From Candidatus Heimdallarchaeota archaeon (lineage in GTDB: Archaea; Asgardarchaeota; Heimdallarchaeia; Heimdallarchaeales; Kariarchaeaceae), in contig JASBSB010000001.1 of assembly GCA_030149205.1 (NCBI GenBank), forward strand, positions 360,001 to 392,000: DNA of 32,000 nucleotides, given 5' to 3'. How positions within the stretch are numbered: position 1 is the first letter of the stretch; the number at the start of each line of letters is the position of its first letter. Shown here piece after piece: positions 11,059-30,196 of this stretch. The position numbers were made by a program, and so were the translations under genes. The notes under the pieces were generated by a model. The model made no database searches and had not been told where the DNA came from. It worked only from the letters and a program-made list of their open reading frames with translations.

Positions 11059-13371
11059 TTAATCGAATATTAAATTATGTTCGTATTCAGACCATATCCA
11101 CAGAGGTAGTTCACTACTTAAAGAGGTATTAACCCTTATTGGGTAAGATATATCAAGATGAACCTCCTTTAGAGATTTCATTGGAACTAAACAACTGATA
11201 TCTAGTTCTTCTACCTCAATATCTGTTAAATCTACAAACTCTAGAGAAAGTACCCCCAAAGGATTAAGATTTAATTGTGTAATTCTATTTTTTGAACAGG
11301 AGAAATATTTTAAGGTCAAAATTGTCTGAAGTGGAGTCAAATCTAAGCTTTCTATGAAATTATCAGAAATATCTAATAAAATAAGATTTTGCAAATTTGT
11401 AAGCGGACTAAGGTCAATGTTTTCAATTAAGTTTCCATTCAAGTAAAAATACTGCAGTTTTGTGAACTGTGAAAATTGGTTGACTTCTAAGTCCTGGAGG
11501 TTGTTTTCACTTAAAATTAAAAGTTGTAATTCAGAACGATCTTTGTCAACTGGAAAGTTTATTTGTGATAATTTGTTTTGCTGTAGTTCTAACTCCTCTA
11601 ATTCTCTAATTGGCAAATTTTCTAAATTTATATATTGCAGTTGGTTAGATGAAAGGTTTAACTTCTTTAAACCTTTTGAATATCTTAAAAAATCAGCATC
11701 AAAATCTTCGAGAAGGTTTTTGCTCAAATTAATAACCTCAAGATTTGTGAATATGTGAGACTCAAGAATATAACAGTCTACGAAGACATTATCTGAAAGG
11801 TCAAGTTCTCTGAGTCCTCCATTTATGAGACAGTGAGGTATTGTATTTAATAGATTATTTTGAAGATATAATTTCTTAAGCCCATTAAACTGTCTTTCAA
11901 AGACATTAATCTCATCCAATTTATTATTTGCAAGGTTCAAAACCTCTAGATCATCTGAATTACCTAATGGTTCAAGATTAAATTGTTTCAGTTCATTATT
12001 AGATAAGTCTAACGTATTAAGTGATATCGAAAAATGGGGGAGTTCGATTTCCTGAAACTCATTTTGACTTAGATCAAAATATTCCAAACTTTGAGTGTTT
12101 AGACTTTTAAGAGAGCAAACCATTAGTTTGTTATTTGACAAATTCACAGATCTTAGTTTGTGATGGTGTTCGAACCCAGAGAAATCTATAGTCTCAAGAT
12201 AATTTGAGGAAAGATCTAAAAATGAAAGCTCAGTAAGTTCTATAAGAGGAGATAAGTCCAAATGTTTTAATTTATTACTCTTAACATCTAACAGTTTTAG
12301 ATTATTACAATTTACCAGGGGATCCAATGATAAATCTGAAATTGAGTTATAACTCAAATTCAATTCTTCAAGGTTTTTAAATTCTTCCAAAAAGGTCAAA
12401 TTTAACTCACTGAGGGTGTTGTTCGATAAGTCGATAAATTTCATGGAATTTGGGATACATGAAAGAATTTCACTAATTTTAGCCGGTTGAATTCCACTTA
12501 GGTTAATTCTTTCTAATTGAGACCACTTTTTCAACAATTTCCAGTTAAAACTTAATTTATCGTTATATGAAATATCAAAGTCCAGAATATTTGGGAGCAG
12601 GTCAAAAAAATTTTCAGACAGTTTCTCTAGGTTGTTGTGGTCTAGGTAAATTGATGTTAAATGTTCCAGATTTTTTGATGGGGCTTTGACCTCTCTGATT
12701 CTATTTTCTCCCAAATTGAGATAGGTAAAATTATTCATGTCAGTGAAATTATCTAATGAAAACTCTTCGATCATATTGTTATTTAGTATCAAATTTTCCA
12801 AGTTTGGAAATTTTTCATTAATATTTGTCAAATTAAATTCTGAAAGATGATTGTAGGCAAGAGAAAGTATGCTCAAATTATGAGGCTCTGATTGGTTGCT
12901 TAAAGTAACAGTGTAAATTAAGTTGTTGTCCAGAATAAGATATTGCAGTTCTGGAAGATTACATTCCAATCCAGATAATTCTATATCACAGAGAGAGTTT
13001 GAATTAAGCCAAATTTCTTTTAGATTTGGTAACTTTAAATTTTGAATTGGAAATTTTGATAGGGAATTATTTCTGATAAACAGATATTCCAGTCCTTTTA
13101 ACATTGAAAGACTTTCAAAATTTATTTGATTCAACTCATTTCCATCTATTTTCAATGATTTTAAATTTGTAATATCCCTTAGTTTTTCAAATGGAATTGT
13201 TTTGAATGCATTATTTGAGAGATATAAAATTTCAAGTTCAGGCAGATACTGAAATTTATCAAATTCAAGAGATTTAATATTAAGGTCACTTAGGTCAAGC
13301 TTTAATATAGATTCATCGACCTCGAATTTAAAATATGTTTCATCAGCCATTTCTCCCTTAATTGTTATCAT
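11059..13371 (-). CDS. Leucine-rich repeat protein (roughly 28-30 repeats, no signal peptide or effector domain)
   Basis: LxxLxLxxNxL repeats over nearly all 770 aa, with recurring 'DLSPL/NLEPL' elements. Confidence 0.95.
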   Translation of the reverse strand: MITIKGEMADETYFKFEVDESILKLDLSDLNIKSLEFDKFQYLPELEILYLSNNAFKTIPFEKLRDITNLKSLKIDGNELNQINFESLSMLKGLEYLFIRNNSLSKFPIQNLKLPNLKEIWLNSNSLCDIELSGLECNLPELQYLILDNNLIYTVTLSNQSEPHNLSILSLAYNHLSEFNLTNINEKFPNLENLILNNNMIEEFSLDNFTDMNNFTYLNLGENRIREVKAPSKNLEHLTSIYLDHNNLEKLSENFFDLLPNILDFDISYNDKLSFNWKLLKKWSQLERINLSGIQPAKISEILSCIPNSMKFIDLSNNTLSELNLTFLEEFKNLEELNLSYNSISDLSLDPLVNCNNLKLLDVKSNKLKHLDLSPLIELTELSFLDLSSNYLETIDFSGFEHHHKLRSVNLSNNKLMVCSLKSLNTQSLEYFDLSQNEFQEIELPHFSISLNTLDLSNNELKQFNLEPLGNSDDLEVLNLANNKLDEINVFERQFNGLKKLYLQNNLLNTIPHCLINGGLRELDLSDNVFVDCYILESHIFTNLEVINLSKNLLEDFDADFLRYSKGLKKLNLSSNQLQYINLENLPIRELEELELQQNKLSQINFPVDKDRSELQLLILSENNLQDLEVNQFSQFTKLQYFYLNGNLIENIDLSPLTNLQNLILLDISDNFIESLDLTPLQTILTLKYFSCSKNRITQLNLNPLGVLSLEFVDLTDIEVEELDISCLVPMKSLKEVHLDISYPIRVNTSLSSELPLWIWSEYEHNLIFD

Positions 13372-18984: not shown

Positions 18985-19551
18985 TTAAGGAAAACTTTCA
19001 TCACTTGTCGCAGACGTTATCATTTCTTGTACCAACCAATCAAACATAGAATCTACGCCATCACCTGTCTTTGCCGAGGTTTCAAAATATGAAAGTGGAC
19101 TATTGTTTAATATTTCATCCAATAGGGCTCTTACACCATCTAGGTTAGCTTCATTAACAATTCTTTTTTCAATTAGGTCAATCTTATTACCAACAAGTGC
19201 AATAGGAACTTTCCTGTTTATTACAATCTTCAGGATATCTTCTAACCACCACAGGGTGTTTTCAATATCAATCTCACGTGTAACATCGAGTACTAAAACA
19301 CATCCGGCAACTCCAGTAGTATAAGATTTTCGGATCTCTCGAAACTCCGCATCCCCAGCTAGATCCCATATGACCAGTTCAGCATCATATGAATCAGATT
19401 TTAATTTAACTGTCTTAATTTCAACCCCTAAGGTTTTCAGGTACTTTTCGTTAAAACTCTCACCCGAAATCATCCTTCTTAAAGAGGTTTTACCAACTCC
19501 TTGGTCTCCAAGTAACACGATTTTAAAGGCGAAAGAATTCTCATCAAGCAA
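18985..19551 (-). CDS. Rab/Ras-like small GTPase
   Basis: G1 GDQGVGKT, G2 T in 'YLKTLG', G3 WDLAG, G4 NKID, G5 ETSAK. No C-terminal Cys motif. TTG start. Confidence 0.92.
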   Translation of the reverse strand: MLDENSFAFKIVLLGDQGVGKTSLRRMISGESFNEKYLKTLGVEIKTVKLKSDSYDAELVIWDLAGDAEFREIRKSYTTGVAGCVLVLDVTREIDIENTLWWLEDILKIVINRKVPIALVGNKIDLIEKRIVNEANLDGVRALLDEILNNSPLSYFETSAKTGDGVDSMFDWLVQEMITSATSDESFP

Positions 19552-19704
19552 TTAAATTCAATCCTACTTGTCTGTTTTTCTTTAAATGTTTTGTGCATTT
19601 TCACACCAACTTAATCAATAATAGATTGTATTTTTCATTAGAGGCAATATAATATTTGCCAACCATAAGAAGAACCATTTATATATATTCTTTTTTTTGT
19701 TAAA

Positions 19705-20469
19705 TTGAACATGGACAAGGCGTCTCGCATCATTTTTTCAATTCTAAAGCTTCAAATGAAAAAAATTGCAATTGCTGGTCCCACAGGGGCAGGGAAAACC
19801 ACATTATTTAAATTGGTCTTTCCTTACAATGAGTACAACCTTAATGAGGTTGAAAGAAACATTACCAGGGAAGCTCTTTCAGAGATATCTATAACACAGA
19901 TTGAGGAGGATCAGTTTGAAAATTCGACAACTACTGTAAGTTTCAATGTAAGTAATGCAGTGGCATGTATTGACCTGGCTAATCGAATGAACATTTACGA
20001 GATGAAGAATGATCTAAATTTTCTCTTAGAAAATGATTTTGATTACATTCTTCCCATCCAAATTATTGATATTGCAGGTCAGGACAGGTTTAGATTCATG
20101 GTTGAAACCATGATAAGGGGATCTTCAGGAGTTATTTTTGTTGCAGATGGTACAAATGTATCCAGTATCAATAGACTTCCTGAATTTCGTGAAATTGTTC
20201 ATCAAGAAGAACTTCGAATTAACAGGAAAATTGAATCAATTGCCTTTGTAAACAAATCCGATATGGCAAAGAGAAATTTATATGTAGGAAGTGGCCCTGC
20301 GAGGTCAGCTCTTCCTGAAGATGTTGAGGTCTTTGAGACAACTATGTTTGATAAAGACACCTATCTCTATCCGATTAGAAAATTAATTGTCAAAATGTTT
20401 GAAAAACACCTTACAAGTGAAGACCTAAGAAATCATGTAAAGAAGATGTCTTCATTACAAAGAACTTAG
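19705..20469 (+). CDS. MglA/CvnD-like small GTPase with insertions around switch I
   Basis: G1 GPTGAGKT, 'STTTVSF' (compare TTTVAMDF), 'DIAGQDRFRFM...RGSSG' (compare GQxRFxFM...RGAxG), G4 NKSD. The true start may be Met3 or Met18. Confidence 0.8.
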   Translation: MNMDKASRIIFSILKLQMKKIAIAGPTGAGKTTLFKLVFPYNEYNLNEVERNITREALSEISITQIEEDQFENSTTTVSFNVSNAVACIDLANRMNIYEMKNDLNFLLENDFDYILPIQIIDIAGQDRFRFMVETMIRGSSGVIFVADGTNVSSINRLPEFREIVHQEELRINRKIESIAFVNKSDMAKRNLYVGSGPARSALPEDVEVFETTMFDKDTYLYPIRKLIVKMFEKHLTSEDLRNHVKKMSSLQRT

Positions 20470-21392: not shown

Positions 21393-22346
21393 TTATTTGG
21401 ATTTTTCTTTCTTTTTGTCCTCAGAAAACATACCTTGGTTTAACAGAAGTTTGAAGTCTTCAAATCCTAATTTTTCTCCGGACTCTATTTTTTTCTTGAT
21501 ATCAATTGCTCGTTCTTTTTCATTCCTCTTATTTTCTGCATCAATGAGCTCTCTTTCACGTCTTTTCTCCTTAGAGGTTTTCTCACCAATTTCTTTCCTG
21601 ATTCTATCTGCTTCTTTTGAGATTTCATTGATCTCATTTCTAATCTCTCTAATTTTCGTACTAATCTCTTGAATCTGTTGGTGTTCCTCATCAGCAATTT
21701 TCTTGATCTCAAAAGATTGTGCTTTCAATTCTAAAAACTTATTATGGTGATCCTGTGATTCCTGTGCAAGTTTGGTCAATTCCTTATGATATCCTCTTGC
21801 TGTACTGGAATGCATTCTTAGTTTCTCTCTTACAGCACGAATTTCATCTCTCTTTTCGTTTGCTACTGTTAACTGGTCGAGTTGTCTGTATAAATCTTCA
21901 ATTTCTGAAATTATCTCATTCTCTTCTTTGTTGTCTAGATTAGGTGAAATTTCTAGCTTGTTTTCAAGTTCATCTATACGTCTGCTGAGATATTTTGTTT
22001 TTCGATAACTATTGTTTGAACCTTTGGTTTCTCCTAGAGCTTCTTCAAGTTTGTCTAACTCAGCTTTTGCCTTAGCCACATCTTCCTTAGCCAGATCTCT
22101 CAAAGCTTTTTTTAGTTGGACCTCTTCGTTAATTTTGTCCCTTTCATCAAGATGTGTTCGAGCCTCTTTGTAATGGTCTCTAAACTCCTTGTTATGACCG
22201 TCTCTTTTCTCACGAAATTCGTTTCGTTCCTGTTCGAACTTTCTGACCTCAGTTATGAGGTTTTTCCGTTGATTACGTAACTCGTTGAGAGTCTCACGTT
22301 TTTCTTTCAAATCAGTTTTGTCCATTGTAACCGACAAATATTTCAC
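21393..22346 (-). CDS. Conserved archaeal coiled-coil protein (COG1340-type)
   Basis: E/K/R-rich heptads with the characteristic C-terminus 'AIDIKKKIESGEKLGFEDFKLL'. The start may be ATG 22325. Confidence 0.8.
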   Translation of the reverse strand: MKYLSVTMDKTDLKEKRETLNELRNQRKNLITEVRKFEQERNEFREKRDGHNKEFRDHYKEARTHLDERDKINEEVQLKKALRDLAKEDVAKAKAELDKLEEALGETKGSNNSYRKTKYLSRRIDELENKLEISPNLDNKEENEIISEIEDLYRQLDQLTVANEKRDEIRAVREKLRMHSSTARGYHKELTKLAQESQDHHNKFLELKAQSFEIKKIADEEHQQIQEISTKIREIRNEINEISKEADRIRKEIGEKTSKEKRRERELIDAENKRNEKERAIDIKKKIESGEKLGFEDFKLLLNQGMFSEDKKKEKSK

Positions 22347-22483: not shown

Positions 22484-23785
22484 TTAAGGAGATATTCTGT
22501 TGATTGTACGAGGATATAATGTGGTGTCTCTGATATGTTCAAGATTCAGAACCCATTGAACAAATCTTTCCAATCCTAGTCCAAATCCACTATGTGGAAC
22601 TGAACCATACCGTCTTAGGTCAAGATACCAATAATAGTCATCTTGATCCACCGGTGGATCCATTTTGTTCATTCGATCTTTCATGCTCTCTAAATCAGTT
22701 TCTCGTTCACCACAACCAATAACCTCACCTAGGTTTGGAAAAATAAAATCAGCAGAATTTGTAACTTCTGGTTTTTCTAAGTTGATTTTGTGGTAGAAAG
22801 GTTTCATACTGACAGGAAACTGTTCTAATATTATCGGAACACCAAAATGGTTAACCAATTCCCTCTCAGGGGCATCAGATATATCTTCTCCAAATTTAAC
22901 AGTAATTCCTTTCATCTGTAAAATTTCGAGCGCCTCTGAATACGAAACCCTTGGAAATGGTTTTTGTGGGACTTTTAAGTCAATCTCAAAAAAATCTAAT
23001 ATCTCTTGATCATTCTGTTTAACTTTATTTAAAACAAAAATTATAAGATCCTCCAAGTATTCCTTAAGACCTGCAAAATCCATAAATGCATACTCCCCTT
23101 CAATATGTGTGTATTCAGTCAAATGTCTTCTTGTTCTACTTTTCTCAGCTCTAAATGAGGGTAAGATACAAAATACGTCACGCAATGAAAAAATCGCCGT
23201 CTCTAAATATAGTTGTGATGATTGTGTAAGGTAGGCTTTGTCTTTAAAATATTTAATTTCAAACAGTTCTGAACCTCCTTCAGCTTGAGCTTCTACAATT
23301 GTTGGAGGTGTTACCTCTTCAGCATTTCTTGAATAAAAAAACTCTCTAAAATATTGGACGATATGTGACCTTAATCTTAGAATTGCTGAGGTTTTTGGTC
23401 CTCTAATGACCAAGTGTCTCTTGTTCAGTTGTGTTTCAATTCCAGCTCCCTCAGGCAATAGTTGATCGTAATCCTCAGTTGATGTGTCAAATATCTCGAG
23501 CTCGACCACTGACATTTCCATGTTATATTTAGCCCGGGGGTCTTCTTTCACTTTACCTGTGGCTTTTAATGATGCTCCTCTGTATAGATTTTTTAATGAG
23601 TCAAAATGAGGGCTTTTTAATGAATTCTTTTTTATGGTGAGTTGTAAAGTTTTGAAGGTGCTACCATCAAAAAACTCAATGAAAATCAATTTTCCCTGTG
23701 TTCTCTTCTGCCAGATCCAACCTTCAACACAGACTTCTCTTCCAAAATTTTCTGGAACATCATTTATTCTAACAATTGTGACCAC
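22484..23785 (-). CDS. asnS: Asparagine--tRNA ligase
   Basis: OB-fold anticodon domain, motif 2 'FRAEKSRTRRHLTEY', motif 3 'LRRYGSVPHSGFGLGLER' (AsnRS-type rather than AspRS). GTG start. Confidence 0.95.
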   Translation of the reverse strand: MVTIVRINDVPENFGREVCVEGWIWQKRTQGKLIFIEFFDGSTFKTLQLTIKKNSLKSPHFDSLKNLYRGASLKATGKVKEDPRAKYNMEMSVVELEIFDTSTEDYDQLLPEGAGIETQLNKRHLVIRGPKTSAILRLRSHIVQYFREFFYSRNAEEVTPPTIVEAQAEGGSELFEIKYFKDKAYLTQSSQLYLETAIFSLRDVFCILPSFRAEKSRTRRHLTEYTHIEGEYAFMDFAGLKEYLEDLIIFVLNKVKQNDQEILDFFEIDLKVPQKPFPRVSYSEALEILQMKGITVKFGEDISDAPERELVNHFGVPIILEQFPVSMKPFYHKINLEKPEVTNSADFIFPNLGEVIGCGERETDLESMKDRMNKMDPPVDQDDYYWYLDLRRYGSVPHSGFGLGLERFVQWVLNLEHIRDTTLYPRTINRISP

Positions 23786-23835: not shown

Positions 23836-24132
23836 TTACGATGTTTCTGCGGATTCAGTTTCAACTTCTTCTGTTGCTTTCTGTAAATCTTCCTCTGTCC
23901 ATTCAACTGGTGGAGGAGTGGTAATAAGGGTAAGACCAATCCATCCCATTATTCCAAACACAACCAGAATCATCAGAAACACTGGGATTGTAATAGCATA
24001 CATGAACACCACATCATTTAATTTTGATGGAAACATGGCAGGATATGCTAGTAGATAATAGATTTCAAAGATTATTGCAAAAAGACTGATGAGGGAAATG
24101 ATTACACCAATTAACTTATCTGTGCTTGCCAT
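23836..24132 (-). CDS. Two-TM small membrane protein resembling eukaryotic DPM2
   Basis: 98 aa. 'TDKLIG...SL...YP...YAITIP' has the same spacing as human DPM2 recalled from memory. Followed by TPPP and an acidic tail. Confidence 0.65.
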   Translation of the reverse strand: MASTDKLIGVIISLISLFAIIFEIYYLLAYPAMFPSKLNDVVFMYAITIPVFLMILVVFGIMGWIGLTLITTPPPVEWTEEDLQKATEEVETESAETS

Positions 24133-24150
24133 TGATTCTAAATCATAGAT

Positions 24151-24168
24151 AGGTTAAATAACCTTTCG
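24151..24168 (-). promoter_or_regulatory. BRE-TATA promoter candidate for the DPM2-like gene
   Basis: Minus strand reads CGAAAgg-TTATTTAA, 21 nt before the ATG. The TATA lies within the inverted repeat AGGTTA-N2-TAACCT. Confidence 0.45.
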
Positions 24169-24198
24169 TCAATTTCTTTCGTAAATTGTCAAAGATTT

Positions 24199-25524
24199 TT
24201 AAGAATCCATGATTTCCAAGATTGTATCTACACATCTTATTATAAGTTCTGAACCATCAATGTGAGGCACACTGTTTTTCGAACAATATTCTATTAAACG
24301 AGTTGTATTATTAACCAAGGGGATATCTATTATTAAACTCACTTTATCCAGATATTTTTTTGGAACTGGCAAGATATTTGGGAGATCACCTTCTCCGAAT
24401 GGAACACAATTAAATATCAAATCAAAATCTATGGACTCACTTGGATCTATTGGCTCTACTTTAGGAAAAAAGGAATTAATCACTTCGATTTTTTGAAAGT
24501 TTCGATTTCTTACTCTAATCAAAGATGATCCGGGGTAGGAAACTGCAACCAGAGATGAAACGACAGAATTAAGACCCTCGATATACACATTAAAGAATTT
24601 CTCAAGAGAGTATTCTTTAAGGATTTTTTGAAAGGTTAGATAATAGATATCATAAGCCTTCCAAACTCCTCCTATATGTCTAATGAGACTAATATTTTTT
24701 GAGATGCTTACTGAGCTATCAAATTCTTCTACAAAAGGATATAATTCCGATTGAAATGGAGGAAAAACGAACAAACTGTTAATATACGTAGATTTAAACA
24801 CAGGAAATGCACGTGTAAATTCAATGATATTATTCAATTCTAGGACAGTAAACTTAATGGAATCACCATTTAGAACATCAAATACTTTTACTGCTTGAAT
24901 TTTTTGTCCTTTTCGTGTGAGAACCAATGTATTAAGGTTATATACTGATAAGTCCTCTCTTTGATCCGAAAAGAAATTGTTTAGATCATCTCCACAAAAC
25001 AAGGAGAAGATTTCTTTTAAATCACCTTCCACAAATATATGGTAATCTTGGTTTGTACTATTGAGCTTTTTTACCCAATTATAAATTTCAAGAAGGTCAG
25101 TTATTGAGTTAGGGTGAACTATTATCTTTGCTACGAAAGTCCCAAGTGATTTCTTCAAATCGATTATACTCTCAAAATCTATTTTTGCTATACCCTCATA
25201 ATCTACAAAGACAACGATTGGTATCGACCCATTTTCTAAAAGGGTCATAGAAAGTAAATCATAAGGGTACAGAAACTCAATGTAGTGGGGATGCAAGTCA
25301 ACGATCTTCTTCAAAAGTCTGATACGCATATCTAAAGAGCCAAATTCTGACCAATAAGGTAGTGTCAATAAATATTTTTGATTAGTCTTTTCGTTGATTT
25401 CATTTAACAATCCACTGGAGAGGACGAACTCATTAACCTCAAACCTTTTAATTTTATTAGAGTCAAAGGACGATGATAAAAAATCCTGAATATTATCAAA
25501 ATTGATAATCTCGGGTTTCTTCAT
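24199..25524 (-). CDS. Degenerate type I 3-dehydroquinase / shikimate dehydrogenase (AroD-AroE) fusion-like protein
   Basis: N-half 'GTFVAKIIVHPNSITDLLEI' matches AroD GADIPKIAVMPQS. C-half 'VRNRNFQK', 'DLIFNCVPFG' and 'TTRLIEYCSKNSVPHIDGSEL' match the AroE Rossmann domain. Most catalytic residues are substituted. Confidence 0.7.
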   Translation of the reverse strand: MKKPEIINFDNIQDFLSSSFDSNKIKRFEVNEFVLSSGLLNEINEKTNQKYLLTLPYWSEFGSLDMRIRLLKKIVDLHPHYIEFLYPYDLLSMTLLENGSIPIVVFVDYEGIAKIDFESIIDLKKSLGTFVAKIIVHPNSITDLLEIYNWVKKLNSTNQDYHIFVEGDLKEIFSLFCGDDLNNFFSDQREDLSVYNLNTLVLTRKGQKIQAVKVFDVLNGDSIKFTVLELNNIIEFTRAFPVFKSTYINSLFVFPPFQSELYPFVEEFDSSVSISKNISLIRHIGGVWKAYDIYYLTFQKILKEYSLEKFFNVYIEGLNSVVSSLVAVSYPGSSLIRVRNRNFQKIEVINSFFPKVEPIDPSESIDFDLIFNCVPFGEGDLPNILPVPKKYLDKVSLIIDIPLVNNTTRLIEYCSKNSVPHIDGSELIIRCVDTILEIMDS

Positions 25525-25622
25525 CTAAAATATCAAAGTATTGGTTATATTTAATTATTATTACCGGTTCAAATATATCTTGCAAGTGTACAATACTGTT
25601 TTTAAATCTCCTTTTCTCCAAA

Positions 25623-26438
25623 TTAGATCTGAATTAACTGCAAGAATGGAATTAAAATTGAACCCCAAAGTAACCATATAACATAGGCTAACCAGAAGTA
25701 AACAATTCCTGGTATCTGAGCTCTCACCCAAACAAATTCTCTCTTGGTTAGAATTGAGGATGAATGAACGCTCTGTCTTAGTTCCTTCTCTTTTTGCTCT
25801 AATACTTCATCTTCCTCATTATACACAAACAATTGCTTTGTAGAAACCCATTCATTGTCTACAAATTCTTCTGCGGGATCTAGAAAACTGGTTGAAGAAA
25901 GCTTTTTTGGATCTACTTGAAATGCTGTTACTAAAAATGTGATTTTCGTAAAAATTGAGAGCCGGTGTTCGTTTATGAACCACTTTCTGAATTTAAAATA
26001 ATTGAATATATTCAATATAAAAATAGGAACAATTGTTAAAACTAAGCCAAAAATAAAATTTGCAAGGATCAGGAAAAGTGGAATCAAGGCAAAGGCTAGA
26101 GGAATTGTCATTGGGATAAAAGAGAAAATTACTGGGCTAGAGAAACTCAGAGCAATTAATGCTTTTGAATCACCACCACCCCATATACCCATGGAATAAA
26201 ATAAGAATCCAAGAATAAGACCTGAGGCAAAATTAATTAGAATCCCAAAAAGTTCTAAAAAAGAGTAGGGTTGTAGAATCCCACAGACTGTAACCACCAG
26301 TAATCCTGAAATTCCTTGAGTTAACCACACCAGATTACTAGTGTAGCGGGTTTTGATATCTTGATAGGCCCCTATTGATAACGCGACTAAAGTAATAATA
26401 ACTAAAATAAATTGACAGCTAAGATCCATGAATTGCAC
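25623..26438 (-). CDS. A24 family prepilin/preflagellin peptidase (FlaK/PibD-like)
   Basis: Catalytic Asp motifs 'AYQDIKTR' and 'GIWGGGDSKAL', FlaK-type C-terminal 'VWVRAQIP', multiple TMs. The start may be ATG 26429. Confidence 0.88.
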   Translation of the reverse strand: MQFMDLSCQFILVIITLVALSIGAYQDIKTRYTSNLVWLTQGISGLLVVTVCGILQPYSFLELFGILINFASGLILGFLFYSMGIWGGGDSKALIALSFSSPVIFSFIPMTIPLAFALIPLFLILANFIFGLVLTIVPIFILNIFNYFKFRKWFINEHRLSIFTKITFLVTAFQVDPKKLSSTSFLDPAEEFVDNEWVSTKQLFVYNEEDEVLEQKEKELRQSVHSSSILTKREFVWVRAQIPGIVYFWLAYVIWLLWGSILIPFLQLIQI

Positions 26439-26444
26439 TTTTCC

Positions 26445-27923
26445 TTATCGTGTATAGAAAATTTGAGAATTAATTTTATGAAGTGTTTTTAACACCTCAC
26501 ATGTTATTGCTATATCATTGTTCCATGAACCATTACTTTCTTGCTGTGCTCCAAGAAAATATACAGCATATTTCACAACATCTCTCTCGACTGAATCATT
26601 ATGGATTACACTCCTTAAACAAAGTGCAGTAGCATAGACAGAATTATCCCAGCCTCCTTCAATTCCTTGTTGGTTTCTAATGTACTCCTTCACCTTTTCT
26701 AACCTGGTCTCGATTCTCAATTCTGTGTCTGAAAAGCTCGGTAGGTCAAATGCAAAACCTTCATCTTTACTTGGCTTAATTTCTACTATTGGCTCGTTAT
26801 CTGTAGTCATCTCGATTAATGAGTTAAACAATAAGCCCAAAAATAGGTTTGAGATATTTTCTTCTTGAGCAGTTACATTAAATCTGGTGATAGAGCGATT
26901 CAAAACAATATTAAATGTGTTTGCGATAATATCCGCCAGAAGTTGTGCTGGTTCCATTTGACCTAATAATTTGTAGATAGGTCCAAGAACGGGAATGTAG
27001 GGAAGTTTTCCTGAGGCAAGAAATTCTTTGGATTGAATTTCATTTACAAAATCCCACTCGCTAAAATCAAACATTAATTTGGTAATTTCAGCCAGCTGTT
27101 CGTCATTAAAAGCAGCATTCTTAGGATCTACATTCAAAATGAAAAGCAATGGAATTAGTTTCTCGTATGTTGGTTCAATATCTATTTTCTCAATAACATC
27201 TAACACTAGATAGTAGATCTGCTCAAATGTTCGTGTTTCCTGTTCTCCGTTAACAATCTGAGTCCATGAGTAGCTGAGCGGTTTTTTCAAATCCACAAAA
27301 AGTCTACCTACCTCAGATGTTTCATAAAGAGGGTTTTTCTCACCCCAAGTACCAGATGTATCTTGCTTGCTGAACAGCCACTTTTCAGCCCTCTGGATCA
27401 ACTCATCAATTTTCAAATCTGACAAAGGTATTCTCTTAAGCTCTTCTTTAATGTCTTTGAACTGACTGATGAGGTGGGTAGTTTCACTTTTACTTTGGGA
27501 ATTAAGCAGAAAATATCCGGCAGCAATAACCGTGGACATGATATTAACAAAATAAAGTAATGATAACAATTCGAGATTTTGAGTGTTATTTGTTTGAAGT
27601 CCAATACTAAATAGAAATGTACTTACTGCCCCTGTAAGTAATAAAATTGCTACAACCCTGTTTTTTATTGAAAAAAACATCCCAAACTTAAAAAATTCAT
27701 CTAGGAAGGTTAACAATAATAAGATTATTACAAAATATTCAAAGTAAAGTGCATAAAATGGCAATCCAACCAACTCACCCTTGCTTCCCAAAGAATTAAC
27801 CATTGATTGAGTTATTACCAGATTAAACCCCACTGTAACAACAAGATAAATTATTTCTAGACTCTCTATAGTCCGTTTTCTTGAATAATTTAAGACTTTG
27901 CTATAGCTTTCGTTACCACTCAT
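26445..27923 (-). CDS. Membrane-anchored protein with prenyltransferase/squalene-cyclase-like QW repeats
   Basis: About 4 N-terminal TMs, then repeats 'WLFSKQDTSGTW' (W193), 'YIRNQQGIEGGW' (W425) and 'FLGAQQESNGSW' (W467). Confidence 0.7.
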   Translation of the reverse strand: MSGNESYSKVLNYSRKRTIESLEIIYLVVTVGFNLVITQSMVNSLGSKGELVGLPFYALYFEYFVIILLLLTFLDEFFKFGMFFSIKNRVVAILLLTGAVSTFLFSIGLQTNNTQNLELLSLLYFVNIMSTVIAAGYFLLNSQSKSETTHLISQFKDIKEELKRIPLSDLKIDELIQRAEKWLFSKQDTSGTWGEKNPLYETSEVGRLFVDLKKPLSYSWTQIVNGEQETRTFEQIYYLVLDVIEKIDIEPTYEKLIPLLFILNVDPKNAAFNDEQLAEITKLMFDFSEWDFVNEIQSKEFLASGKLPYIPVLGPIYKLLGQMEPAQLLADIIANTFNIVLNRSITRFNVTAQEENISNLFLGLLFNSLIEMTTDNEPIVEIKPSKDEGFAFDLPSFSDTELRIETRLEKVKEYIRNQQGIEGGWDNSVYATALCLRSVIHNDSVERDVVKYAVYFLGAQQESNGSWNNDIAITCEVLKTLHKINSQIFYTR

Positions 27924-28004
27924 GGATATCTTAAGTATAGGTTCTCCTTAGAACTTAAAAAAATATGCTGATAAAACGCTTATATTGTAAAGTTTCAAAA
28001 ATAT

Positions 28005-28373
28005 TCAATACGGAAACAAGACAGCAATTAACAATAAAATTAAGCTAATTCCTACTCTCACCAAGAAATCTCTTCGTAATTTAGCCTTTAATGTACTAGC
28101 ATCTTCGGTAGATGTGTTTTCGTTACTCAGTATTCTTAGATCTCTTCTCATAGAAAAGAGAATGCCTGCAATAAAGACTGGAAAAATCAGCAATGACATA
28201 TTACCAGGAGTTTGTTTTATCTTAAAGCCAATAGTAAGAGCAAACTCTATAAGAAAAACAAAAAGCAGACCGAGAGAGATCTTATCTACCAGCTTAACAG
28301 GTTCTGAGGTCTTTTTATACTCACCCCAAACTTGCGATAACAATTTTCGTGCATTGAATCCTTGTGTTGACAT
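28005..28373 (-). CDS. Three-TM small membrane protein resembling oligosaccharyltransferase subunit DAD1/Ost2
   Basis: 122 aa. 'EY...KLVD...EF...PGN...LRI..N...DFL' parallels DAD1 'EY...KLLD...QF...PFN...LRI..N...DFL' recalled from memory. Confidence 0.6.
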   Translation of the reverse strand: MSTQGFNARKLLSQVWGEYKKTSEPVKLVDKISLGLLFVFLIEFALTIGFKIKQTPGNMSLLIFPVFIAGILFSMRRDLRILSNENTSTEDASTLKAKLRRDFLVRVGISLILLLIAVLFPY

Positions 28374-28435
28374 AATTCCTAAGTGGATAAAATCCTTGTG
28401 CTAAATAAGAATTCCTACAAATACATAAAATATGA

Positions 28436-28744
28436 TTAAACTACTCGAAAAACTTCATATCTTTTGGCTCGAGGTCTATTCATTACCGCGACTTTTTTGC
28501 ATGTAGGGCACGTTATACGCAAATCAATTTTTTTACTGGTCTTACTTGCCATCTTTGTCTGGGTTACTGGTTTCTTGGAGTAACGACCAAGGTTTCCATG
28601 GCCTCGTCTCCTGTGTTTCTGCCTTCTGTGACTCCAGTTTAAACCACCAGACCTTCTTCCACCTTTTTCCTGCTTAACCTTTCCCTCTACATGGGTGTTA
28701 CATTTTCTACAATACATTTTGATTTTATCTGGTAATCTTGCCAT
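28436..28744 (-). CDS. rpl44e: 50S ribosomal protein L44e (eL42)
   Basis: 'YCRKCNTH', 'RRRGHGNLGRYSK', 'KTSKKIDLRITCPTCKK'. ATG 28744 is preferred over the track's GTG 28753. Confidence 0.95.
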   Translation of the reverse strand: MARLPDKIKMYCRKCNTHVEGKVKQEKGGRRSGGLNWSHRRQKHRRRGHGNLGRYSKKPVTQTKMASKTSKKIDLRITCPTCKKVAVMNRPRAKRYEVFRVV

Positions 28745-28822
28745 AAATACCACTTAGATTATAACAAATTTAAAGAAAGGATTTAATTAAAAGTGTCGAT
28801 ACGTTCACCCAGGAAAATTGGA

Positions 28823-29776
28823 TTAGTTTTTTCTTTTTGAAGTGATGAAATTTGCACCCATTAGCCCCAGTATAACACCAACAATGCTTATAACTGCAAT
28901 TATTGCGGAGTTTTCTAGGGTTAGTGGTATACCAGTGAGTGTAGTTGTTGGAGATGAAGGGACTACTGCAGGGATGGTAATGCTAATATTTTGTTCAACT
29001 GAAAGAAAATAAAGCCCATTAACAATCGTTCTTATAAGGATGGAATTATTCAAAGTTTTTGTAACATTTGATGTGGGAAGATTTACGGCCTTAAAAGAAA
29101 AAGTTGATTCTCCCTTGGAATCAGTTCTCTGGCTCATGATATTTTTTCCATTACTAAAAATCCCAAAAGAGGTTGTTAATTCTATAGTTCCATTGACCAA
29201 TGGTTGTTTCAGGTAGGTGCTTTTTGTCAAAATGGTCAAAGATTCACCTGCTTTAATTGAAAGCCTGGAAAATTGTGCTATAGTCACTGGTTCTGGAATA
29301 ACCTGAATCACTGTGATAGAGGCTGTTTCTGTTAAGTTAGTATACCCAATTTTGTGGAGATTAATTGAAATGTTTACATTATTATAATATGAATCAAATA
29401 CAACAGTAGAAAAATTTAGATCAGTTAGAAAGATACCTGAACTGTTTGTAAGACCTTGAGTTGAATTTGTACTTGTTGAGGAAAATTCACCCTTTGTAAT
29501 CGTTAGTGAGACAGATACATTAGATAAGCTAACATTTGTTGTTTTATCCTTAACCTTTACAAAAAAAGAAACCGATTCGTTCTGATATAGTTGCTGGAGT
29601 GTAGTGTTATAATTCAATGCAAATAAATTGCTTTGTTTAGTATATACATCGTCTTGGACTCCATTCAGATGTCCTGATGATGGGACAACTAGAGTTGATA
29701 AGCAAAGAGAAACGATTAACAGACTTATGAGGATGAATTTAGAAAAAGGGTACACGATTAAAATAAGACAAAACAC
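28823..29776 (-). CDS. Cell-surface glycoprotein-like protein (signal sequence, Ig-like beta repeats, C-terminal TM anchor)
   Basis: Hydrophobic N-terminus, two 'T(N/D)SxG' Big-like modules, 13 N-x-S/T sequons, Pro/Ser/Thr linker, TM and basic tail 'SKRKN'. Confidence 0.75.
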   Translation of the reverse strand: MFCLILIVYPFSKFILISLLIVSLCLSTLVVPSSGHLNGVQDDVYTKQSNLFALNYNTTLQQLYQNESVSFFVKVKDKTTNVSLSNVSVSLTITKGEFSSTSTNSTQGLTNSSGIFLTDLNFSTVVFDSYYNNVNISINLHKIGYTNLTETASITVIQVIPEPVTIAQFSRLSIKAGESLTILTKSTYLKQPLVNGTIELTTSFGIFSNGKNIMSQRTDSKGESTFSFKAVNLPTSNVTKTLNNSILIRTIVNGLYFLSVEQNISITIPAVVPSSPTTTLTGIPLTLENSAIIAVISIVGVILGLMGANFITSKRKN

Positions 29777-29809: not shown

Positions 29810-30196
29810 TCAGTGAGAGTTAATCATTTTCGTCCCCGTTGATTCAAAATATGCGTCTAAATAGGGTCTTGCTGGATGCTTAGCTGAGATTCCAATTTCA
29901 TCCAAAGATTCTTTCATTAATTTAACCCACTGGTCTCGAGCTTCTTTGTTAATTTTGAATGGAAAGTGACGCCTCCGAAGCATAGGATGACCTCTTTTTT
30001 GTTCATATTCTCTAGGACCTCCGAATCTCTGAATCAGAAATAAGGCTTGAAGTTCTTTTCCTTCTTCTAAATCTTCTGGGAACAATGGTCTTAAAACCTG
30101 ATCATTTTCGACCTTTCCATAAAAAACTTCAACAAGTTCGTAAAATTTTCCAGAACCTCCAATAAGGGAATATATCTCTTTATCTGATGCTAGCAT
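29810..30196 (-). CDS. Group II truncated haemoglobin (trHbO / GlbO / YjbI-like)
   Basis: 'YSLIGG', 'FY..V..D..LRPLFP', 'FLIQRFGGP..Y...RGHPMLRRRH', 'ARDQW'; proximal His in 'RRRH'. Confidence 0.93.
   Translation of the reverse strand: MLASDKEIYSLIGGSGKFYELVEVFYGKVENDQVLRPLFPEDLEEGKELQALFLIQRFGGPREYEQKRGHPMLRRRHFPFKINKEARDQWVKLMKESLDEIGISAKHPARPYLDAYFESTGTKMINSH

Follow-up and report, generated by a model that had tools for sequence, protein, structure and literature searches.

Asgard homologues of the subunits of the eukaryotic oligosaccharyltransferase (OST) have served as an argument that eukaryotes descend from an archaeal ancestor already equipped with a complex machine for glycosylation and translocation. 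To our knowledge, none of the small OST-type subunits has been assigned a function by experiment in archaea. The A24 peptidases are known from textbooks, and DPM2 and PIG-P are regulatory subunits with two transmembrane (TM) helices, belonging respectively to the eukaryotic dolichol-phosphate-mannose synthase and to the glycosylphosphatidylinositol (GPI)-GlcNAc transferase. Homologues of Ost2 have been published as present in, and restricted to, Heimdallarchaeia (PMC10307638), and they may be the same set as the Ost2-like family described below. Here we analyse a stretch of 32,000 nucleotides (the window; G000:C4:360001-392000) from a Heimdallarchaeota genome of 3.3 Mb in 12 contigs, 93.5% complete. 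Public relatives of the window proteins are labelled Candidatus Kariarchaeaceae or Heimdallarchaeota. The window contains seven consecutive minus-strand genes, among them those for an Ost2-like protein, a membrane protein with an (alpha/alpha)6 toroid domain (hereafter the toroid protein) and an A24 peptidase (Table 1). The initial annotation of this DNA read the whole run as one undescribed membrane module for processing and glycosylating exported proteins. Our analysis reveals that the run is a composite and not one module, and that these three genes form an island of kept gene order within it.

Conserved order of the Ost2-like, toroid and A24 genes

Gene order was compared in 20 genomes of the order and in one metagenomic contig, within at most 10 kb on either side of the Ost2-like gene, and genome-wide coordinates of the Ost2-like and toroid families were compared as well. 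In 32 of the 38 genomes that have both genes on one contig, representing 10 of 13 genera, the toroid gene comes immediately after the Ost2-like gene and has the same orientation. By family, this adjacency is seen in 26 of 26 cases in f3 and 6 of 10 in f1, and in f4 one gene lies between the two. In the window and in 13 of 18 related loci, the A24 gene directly follows the toroid gene; in the other five it is found within 4 kb. Only 6 nucleotides (nt) separate the toroid and A24 genes here, and in several relatives the two open reading frames (ORFs) overlap or abut. The three genes are thus linked across three families of the order, while their flanks are wholly different between families (in f3 they are KaiC-like, decarboxylase, thioredoxin, SIS and MMPL genes). 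Because the linkage persists while the flanks change from family to family, the trio is an island of kept gene order.

It is possible, although in our view rather unlikely, that this is ordinary adjacency, in which the trio is inherited gene order, separately transcribed, and its products serve unrelated processes as an OST accessory, a toroid and a housekeeping pilin peptidase. Several observations point this way and weigh against a common purpose of the three genes. All of the compared genomes belong to one order, so that kinship inflates the counts. The Ost2-like and toroid genes are separated by 36-40 kb in the two closest congeners and are also unlinked in G036, and G039 has neither the toroid nor the peptidase gene at its Ost2-like locus. 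The peptidase gene is displaced 2-4 kb from the toroid gene in genera g8 and g12, and in g12, the largest genus, it is 2-3 kb away and not adjacent. Moreover, the spacers of the run are AT-rich and, read by eye, each of them except the toroid-A24 spacer contains T-runs and TATA-like elements, because of which separate promoters for the genes of the run are possible. However, ordinary adjacency does not sit well with a trio that persists while the surrounding genes are fully reshuffled between families, with the retention of both order and strand in most genomes, or with the 6 nt spacing or overlap of the toroid and A24 ORFs, an arrangement typical of co-translation.

This linkage does not extend to the remaining four genes of the run. 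L44e adjoins the Ost2-like gene only in families f1 and f2, where it may be upstream and co-oriented, downstream, or divergent. The AroDE-like and DPM2-like genes join the run only in f1, and in one locus (L053) the DPM2-like gene is inverted and convergent; in closed genomes of other families it lies 95-690 kb from the Ost2-like gene. For the sequon-rich surface protein, no conserved orthologue was found beside the cluster in 20 related loci. Conservation of gene order, which had been put forward as a check on the proposed module, is therefore seen for the Ost2-like, toroid and A24 genes across the order and is not seen for the L44e, AroDE-like, DPM2-like and surface protein genes, which are neighbours at the family level or below.

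The single seven-gene module of the initial annotation, in which two dead-enzyme folds would be accessories and the sequon-rich protein a substrate, is therefore very unlikely. The description from which it started is accurate: the seven genes are co-oriented with short gaps (69, 62, 81, 6, 98 and 66 nt from the surface protein gene onwards), asnS follows 50 nt further on, and all gene labels were upheld by Pfam and NCBIfam scans, some of them below threshold, as in the cases of DAD and DPM2. The two small eukaryote-like proteins also seem to be real and lie within about 4 kb of each other, the one recognized as an Ost2 fold by AlphaFold2 (AF2) and Foldseek and the other as DPM2/PIG-P by matches across its family, and five of the seven genes co-occur in several family-f1 genomes. 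However, linkage extends beyond the family for three genes only, and order and strand are not kept for the rest. In addition, no sugar-transferring enzyme is encoded in the run, and the window contains no STT3 or glycosyltransferase, a caveat that the annotation itself had entered correctly. The glycosylation machinery of this genome is dispersed, with STT3 on contig C2, Ost1 on C12, a weak Wbp1-like candidate on C8 and SecY on C4 but 231 kb away. The surroundings of STT3 were considered as a glycosylation island, but the neighbouring genes encode eIF5A, a TFIIS-like protein, RuBisCO and a PHP protein, and the idea was rejected. Overall, the run is for the most part ordinary, and it cautions that neighbourhoods in a single genome can mislead as modules.

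The Ost2/DAD1-like protein

Structural modelling suggests that the first protein of the trio has the Ost2/DAD1 fold and is probably homologous to Ost2/DAD1. Its AF2 model, for which the input was 21 archaeal sequences only, has a predicted local distance difference test (pLDDT) score of 90.4 and shows helices at residues 8-21, 24-49, 56-83 and 89-119, that is, an N-terminal helix followed by three TM helices, as Ost2/DAD1 (PF02109) demands. The size of the protein (122 aa) also agrees with that of Ost2/DAD1 (about 110-130 aa), of which there are yeast structures (6EZN, 6C26 and 8AGC) and human structures (6S7O and 6S7T). When the model was compared with 350,542 PDB chains using Foldseek, ranks 1 to 6 were occupied only by chains of yeast Ost2 and human DAD1, all aligned end to end with TM-scores of 0.58-0.68 and probabilities of 0.96-1.0, and unrelated proteins followed after a clear drop. 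The VIA comparison likewise placed human DAD1 (6s7o_D) at rank 1, with a Z of 11.7, an rmsd of 3.6 and 110 of 110 residues aligned. In addition, the Pfam DAD model matches the protein (E=0.0026, 18.5 bits) over positions 3-106 of its 109.

Other results weigh against this assignment. The Pfam score does not reach the curated cut-off of 27 bits, and matches to Pfam DAD at E<=1 are obtained with only 6 of 37 family members, 2 of 21 in the order and 4 of 16 in sister families. The Foldseek E-values for Ost2/DAD1 are weak (0.08-0.6), and unrelated long-helix proteins obtain a VIA Z of about 10 with the same model. A profile of the family retrieved no DAD1/Ost2 chain from the PDB sequences at E<=10 and, among 5.8 billion proteins, reached only Heimdall-group hypothetical proteins and not eukaryotic DAD1. 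All 95 of the 95 public relatives are unannotated Heimdall/Hodarchaeales proteins without a Pfam label. A language-model search found no family for the protein, and a shape search of the ESM Atlas returned nothing related. Six-frame genome scans with Pfam DAD were at chance level, control genomes being matched too, and are uninformative. Sequence alone does not establish the homology to Ost2/DAD1.

The Ost2-like family is restricted to the Heimdall group, and 68 of the 83 genomes in the class carry one copy each. Its members in the order and those in the sister-order/sister-family set constitute one family (hhalign 98.9%, E 2.4e-17). The surroundings of the gene differ sharply between the two sets. 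In the Hodarchaeales neighbourhood (family f5/f6), the Ost2-like gene is followed by genes for a Trm112-like protein and a small ferredoxin; a 688-aa Ribophorin_I/Ost1 protein (E 9e-17) is encoded about 1 kb away in 11 of 13 loci, and SecY about 3.5 kb away in 9 of 13. Those genomes lack the toroid family. The distribution across the class, the proximity to Ost1 and SecY in f5/f6 and the published restriction of Ost2 homologues to Heimdallarchaeia all speak for an Ost2 identity. In the window's order, by contrast, the conserved neighbour is the unrelated toroid protein and not Ost1, Wbp1 or Swp1. The company of the Ost2-fold gene thus differs by Heimdall lineage, being Ost1 and Sec61alpha in one and the toroid protein and a pilin-type signal peptidase in the other.

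In a congener of the window's genome (G046), a tetratricopeptide repeat (TPR) protein is encoded two genes after the Ost2-like gene and barely reaches the threshold of the Pfam Ribophorin_II N-terminal model (23.5 bits against 23.4). Using tblastn, no orthologue of this protein was found in the genome of the window.

A lineage-specific membrane toroid protein

The second protein of the trio gives a match to SQHop_cyclase_C of 29.4 bits. In its AF2 model (pLDDT 81), four N-terminal TM helices precede an (alpha/alpha)6 toroid at residues ~165-492, and three QW motifs are present in the family, which places it among the (alpha/alpha)6 toroids with QW motifs. The best structural matches of the toroid domain are class II terpene cyclases, with Z of 17-19 (squalene-hopene cyclase 1GSZ, the single-domain 8PAJ, MstE 6SBB and drimenyl diphosphate synthase 8ZG0). 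GH88/GH105 hydrolases, sugar epimerases, transcobalamin and thioester domains come close behind.

Unlike the class II terpene cyclases, the protein has a single toroid and the four N-terminal TM helices, and no invariant Asp or DxDD-type general-acid motif occurs in an alignment of 19 sequences of the family. As three QW motifs are present without an invariant aspartate, its motifs indicate that it is not a canonical class II cyclase. The conserved polar residues are instead E201, E289-W290, R343 and K451, with E201 and E289 near-invariant in the same 19 sequences.

The 4TM-toroid family is specific to the order. Full-length relatives are present in 42 of its 46 genomes but are absent from all 36 class genomes outside it and from the rest of the phylum. 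Only 24 library representatives lie below 1e-30 among 1.84 billion proteins, and a shape search of the ESM Atlas gave weak rows only. A single-sequence word search returned 3 matches, a result superseded by the later family searches. We found no description of the family in the literature. The proposition that the protein is the published Swp1/ribophorin II homologue was rejected at the sequence level: no member of the family matches Ribophorin_II, and the genome has no Ribophorin_II_N match.

These features raise the possibility that the toroid protein, as a class II cyclase relative tethered to the membrane, handles isoprenoids either as an enzyme or as a carrier, its targets being polyprenyl or dolichyl lipids, with the Ost2-fold protein as its small membrane subunit and the peptidase as a passenger. 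That squalene-hopene-type and other class II cyclases are the closest matches in both sequence and fold is consistent with such a role, as are the near-invariant acids at E201 and E289-W290-(D/E) and the fact that the most tightly conserved pair is that of the Ost2-like and toroid genes. We nevertheless consider this improbable. Besides the missing acid motif, only the QW repeats resemble cyclases in sequence, and hidden Markov model alignments to squalene-hopene cyclase cover nothing else; sugar-acting toroids (GH88/105 and epimerases) score almost equally; and the tightest coupling of the toroid gene is to the peptidase gene and not to the Ost2-like gene.

Because a K/R-rich N-terminus precedes the four TM helices, the toroid domain is probably cytoplasmic. 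Toroids of family f1 also carry a variable and very acidic insert with repeated short motifs resembling [FL]-x-L-P-[DSNG]-[FL] (alignment columns ~450-570), which is poorly modelled in the window protein (pLDDT <50 at residues 381-399).

The A24 peptidase

The third protein scores above the cut-off for Peptidase_A24 (32.8 bits, cut-off 26.5), has an Arc_PepC_II-type C-terminal region (28.2 bits) and is FlaK-like by NCBIfam. As read from the sequence, both catalytic Asp residues are kept, in YQDIKTR and in GGGD, the latter corresponding to the GxGD motif of the archaeal A24 peptidases FlaK, PibD and EppA. No other A24 match occurs in the genome, as would be expected of a housekeeping enzyme. 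Since it is the sole genomic copy and retains both catalytic Asp residues, it is predicted to be the organism's housekeeping class III signal peptidase. It differs from FlaK, PibD and EppA in the coupling of its gene to that of the toroid membrane protein instead of to archaellum or pilus genes.

Possible function of the three-gene cassette

The linkage and the identities of the three proteins suggest a tentative reading, which is quite possible but falls short of being probable since the support is mostly linkage. According to it, the cassette of Ost2-like, toroid and A24 genes groups membrane proteins that serve the same clients. These clients, on which the three products would act at the membrane, would be exported proteins (pilin-like, archaellin-like and surface proteins) that bear class III signal peptides. 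The A24 enzyme would cut the signal peptides on the cytoplasmic face, and the same clients would be N-glycosylated by an AglB/STT3-based OST that includes the Ost2-like subunit. The toroid protein, without the cyclase acid motif, would most likely be a lineage-specific accessory whose task is either to scaffold the peptidase, to which it would be tied most closely, or to hold or present a ligand, which might be a polyprenyl lipid or a polar head group. The mechanism of shared clients, taken alone, is more doubtful than the cassette itself, although still a reasonable possibility. A cytoplasmic toroid would be situated on the face opposite to glycosylation, which weighs against such a mechanism.

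In a bolder form, the toroid protein would stand in for Wbp1/Swp1 by partnering the Ost2-like protein in the membrane, and would physically tie the OST to the class III signal peptidase. This seems to us a long shot. If true, one machine would carry out both the removal of signal peptides and the N-glycosylation of pilin-like and surface proteins, with the toroid holding the polyprenyl-linked donor or the N-terminus of the client.

The order-specific 4TM-toroid family, its linkage to an Ost2-like gene and to the sole A24 gene, and the contrast with the Ost2-Ost1-SecY arrangement of the sister lineage appear to be new, and they provide a concrete three-protein hypothesis. The word undescribed, which had been applied to the whole run, is apt for the toroid family and the linkage; it does not suit the Ost2-like and DPM2-like proteins, as Ost2 (PMC10307638) and DPM2/PIG-P, the latter listed in a 2025 paper as a family of archaeal origin (PMC12872463), have published precedents.

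Other genes in and around the run

Table 1. Coordinates of the gene run, of its surroundings and of related loci. Plain numbers are positions in the window.
Feature	Length (aa)	Position	Strand	Evidence	Setting
Sequon-rich type I surface protein	317	28823-29776	minus	sequon count; weak Big_1 match	species-level neighbour
Ribosomal protein L44e	105	28436-28753	minus	Pfam and NCBIfam	family-level neighbour
Probable Ost2/DAD1-fold small membrane protein	122	28005-28373	minus	AF2 fold	trio gene 1
4TM + QW toroid protein	492	26445-27923	minus	SQHop_cyclase_C and AF2	trio gene 2
A24 aspartyl peptidase (prepilin/prearchaellin-type, class III signal)	271	25623-26438	minus	Peptidase_A24	trio gene 3
Putative pseudo-AroD-AroE	441	24199-25524	minus	weak DHquinase_I and aroE	neighbour within family f1 only
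Probable DPM2/PIG-P-family 2-TM protein	98	23836-24132	minus	Pfam DPM2 family evidence	neighbour within f1 only
Asparaginyl-tRNA synthetase asnS	433	22484-23785	minus	TIGR00457	downstream housekeeping gene
DUF7121 protein		21393-22346	minus		downstream of asnS
Divergent small-GTPase pair	188 and 254	18985-20469			
Leucine-rich repeat protein	770	11059-13371	minus	LRR_8 E 1.4e-55	
Truncated-type (bacterial-like) globin	128	29810-30196	minus		33 nt upstream of sequon-rich gene
Genuine AroD-AroE fusion	496	G000:C4:985150-986640 (L050:2151-3638)		Shikimate_dh_N, DHquinase_I, Shikimate_DH, SDH_C	
DPM2-like paralogue		G000:C12:32870-33148 (L051:8871-9149)	minus		overlaps start of PlsC-type acyltransferase gene
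DPM2/PIG-P-like relative with helix-hairpin-helix		L039:4008-4460	minus		
TPR protein of a congener	467	L026:3257-4657 (G046:C13)			two genes after Ost2-like gene
STT3		L052:9033-11315 (contig C2)	minus		
Ost1		G000:C12:~46608-47318			
Weak Wbp1-like candidate		G000:C8:64567-65160			
f5/f6 Ost2-like/Ost1/SecY neighbourhood		L057:8137-13369 (G057:C1, ~2761137-2766369)			12 similar loci, L058-L072

Family profiles strongly suggest that the DPM2-like protein is a member of a genuine DPM2/PIG-P family of archaea. Taken alone, the protein scores below threshold with Pfam DPM2 (E=0.054, 14.2 bits, cut-off 27.3), the match covering positions 1-71 of 75. Of the relatives gathered by profile, however, 38 of 40 match Pfam DPM2 (best 7.5e-9) and 37 of 40 match PIG-P (best 1.3e-7), and the match to DPM2 is full-length across the family. 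A language-model search led to archaeal clusters, one of which has DPM2 on 11% of its members. Six-frame scans with Pfam DPM2 were at chance level, with 9 of 14 control genomes matched at E<=1, and are uninformative. Of the 83 genomes of the class, 82 contain the family, which shares with DPM2 and PIG-P the two TM helices and the length of ~90-100 aa. It differs from them in having its own conserved WIGxTxxxTPPPxxW motif and an acidic tail, and no DPM1- or PIG-A-type transferase adjoins the gene. No glycosyltransferase was found beside it in the window, in L053 or L055, or at the paralogue on contig C12.

That paralogue was considered as lying beside a DPM1-type transferase, which was rejected, the neighbour being a PlsC-type acyltransferase whose gene start it overlaps. 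Ost1 is ~13.5 kb from the paralogue on the same contig. In 13 of 40 DPM2/PIG-P-like relatives (P0005, P0011, P0012 and P0021 among them), the acidic tail is followed by a C-terminal helix-hairpin-helix, an odd fusion for a membrane protein with two TM helices.

The AroDE-like protein has the same two-domain architecture as bifunctional AroD-AroE fusions and is a clear, divergent paralogue (profile E 8e-26) of the genuine fusion encoded elsewhere on C4, which gives strong matches to all four of its Pfam models. Compared with the genuine copy, the AroDE-like protein and its orthologues have lost the substrate serines of HSLSP, the K of NVTxPxK is changed to Q, the aspartate of NTD is replaced (DIY/NTE/NTQ), and the NADP glycine loop GAGGA has become EGLNSV and similar. 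The Lys/Asp dyad of shikimate dehydrogenase is thus missing, and the histidine of the dehydroquinase SxH motif is aligned to Asp. The lysine in the VKIxATP motif may persist. These losses support the earlier description of the protein as degenerate, at least in its dehydrogenase half, and the genuine fusion is best regarded as the parent of this apparently dead paralogue.

The surface protein contains 13 N-X-S/T sequons in its 317 residues, above the 99.5th percentile of the long ORFs of the genome and ~3 standard deviations higher than in shuffled sequences of the same composition (6.6 +/- 2.1), so that its designation as sequon-rich is justified. From the sequence, a signal-like segment can be recognized at the N-terminus and a TM anchor at the C-terminus. 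L44e scores 39.3 bits with Pfam (cut-off 25), and its true start is probably the ATG located 9 nt downstream (MARLPDK...). The asnS gene product scores 395 bits with TIGR00457 (cut-off 342.6).

Upstream of the run, a globin gene precedes that of the surface protein. Downstream of asnS, the DUF7121 gene is kept next to DPM2-like or asnS genes in several f1 relatives (L028, L032 and L053). The small-GTPase pair consists of a Ras/Rab-like protein of 188 aa and a longer one in which a long insert separates the P-loop from the Ras-like core, and the 770-aa protein encoded further along the window is made up almost entirely of leucine-rich repeats.

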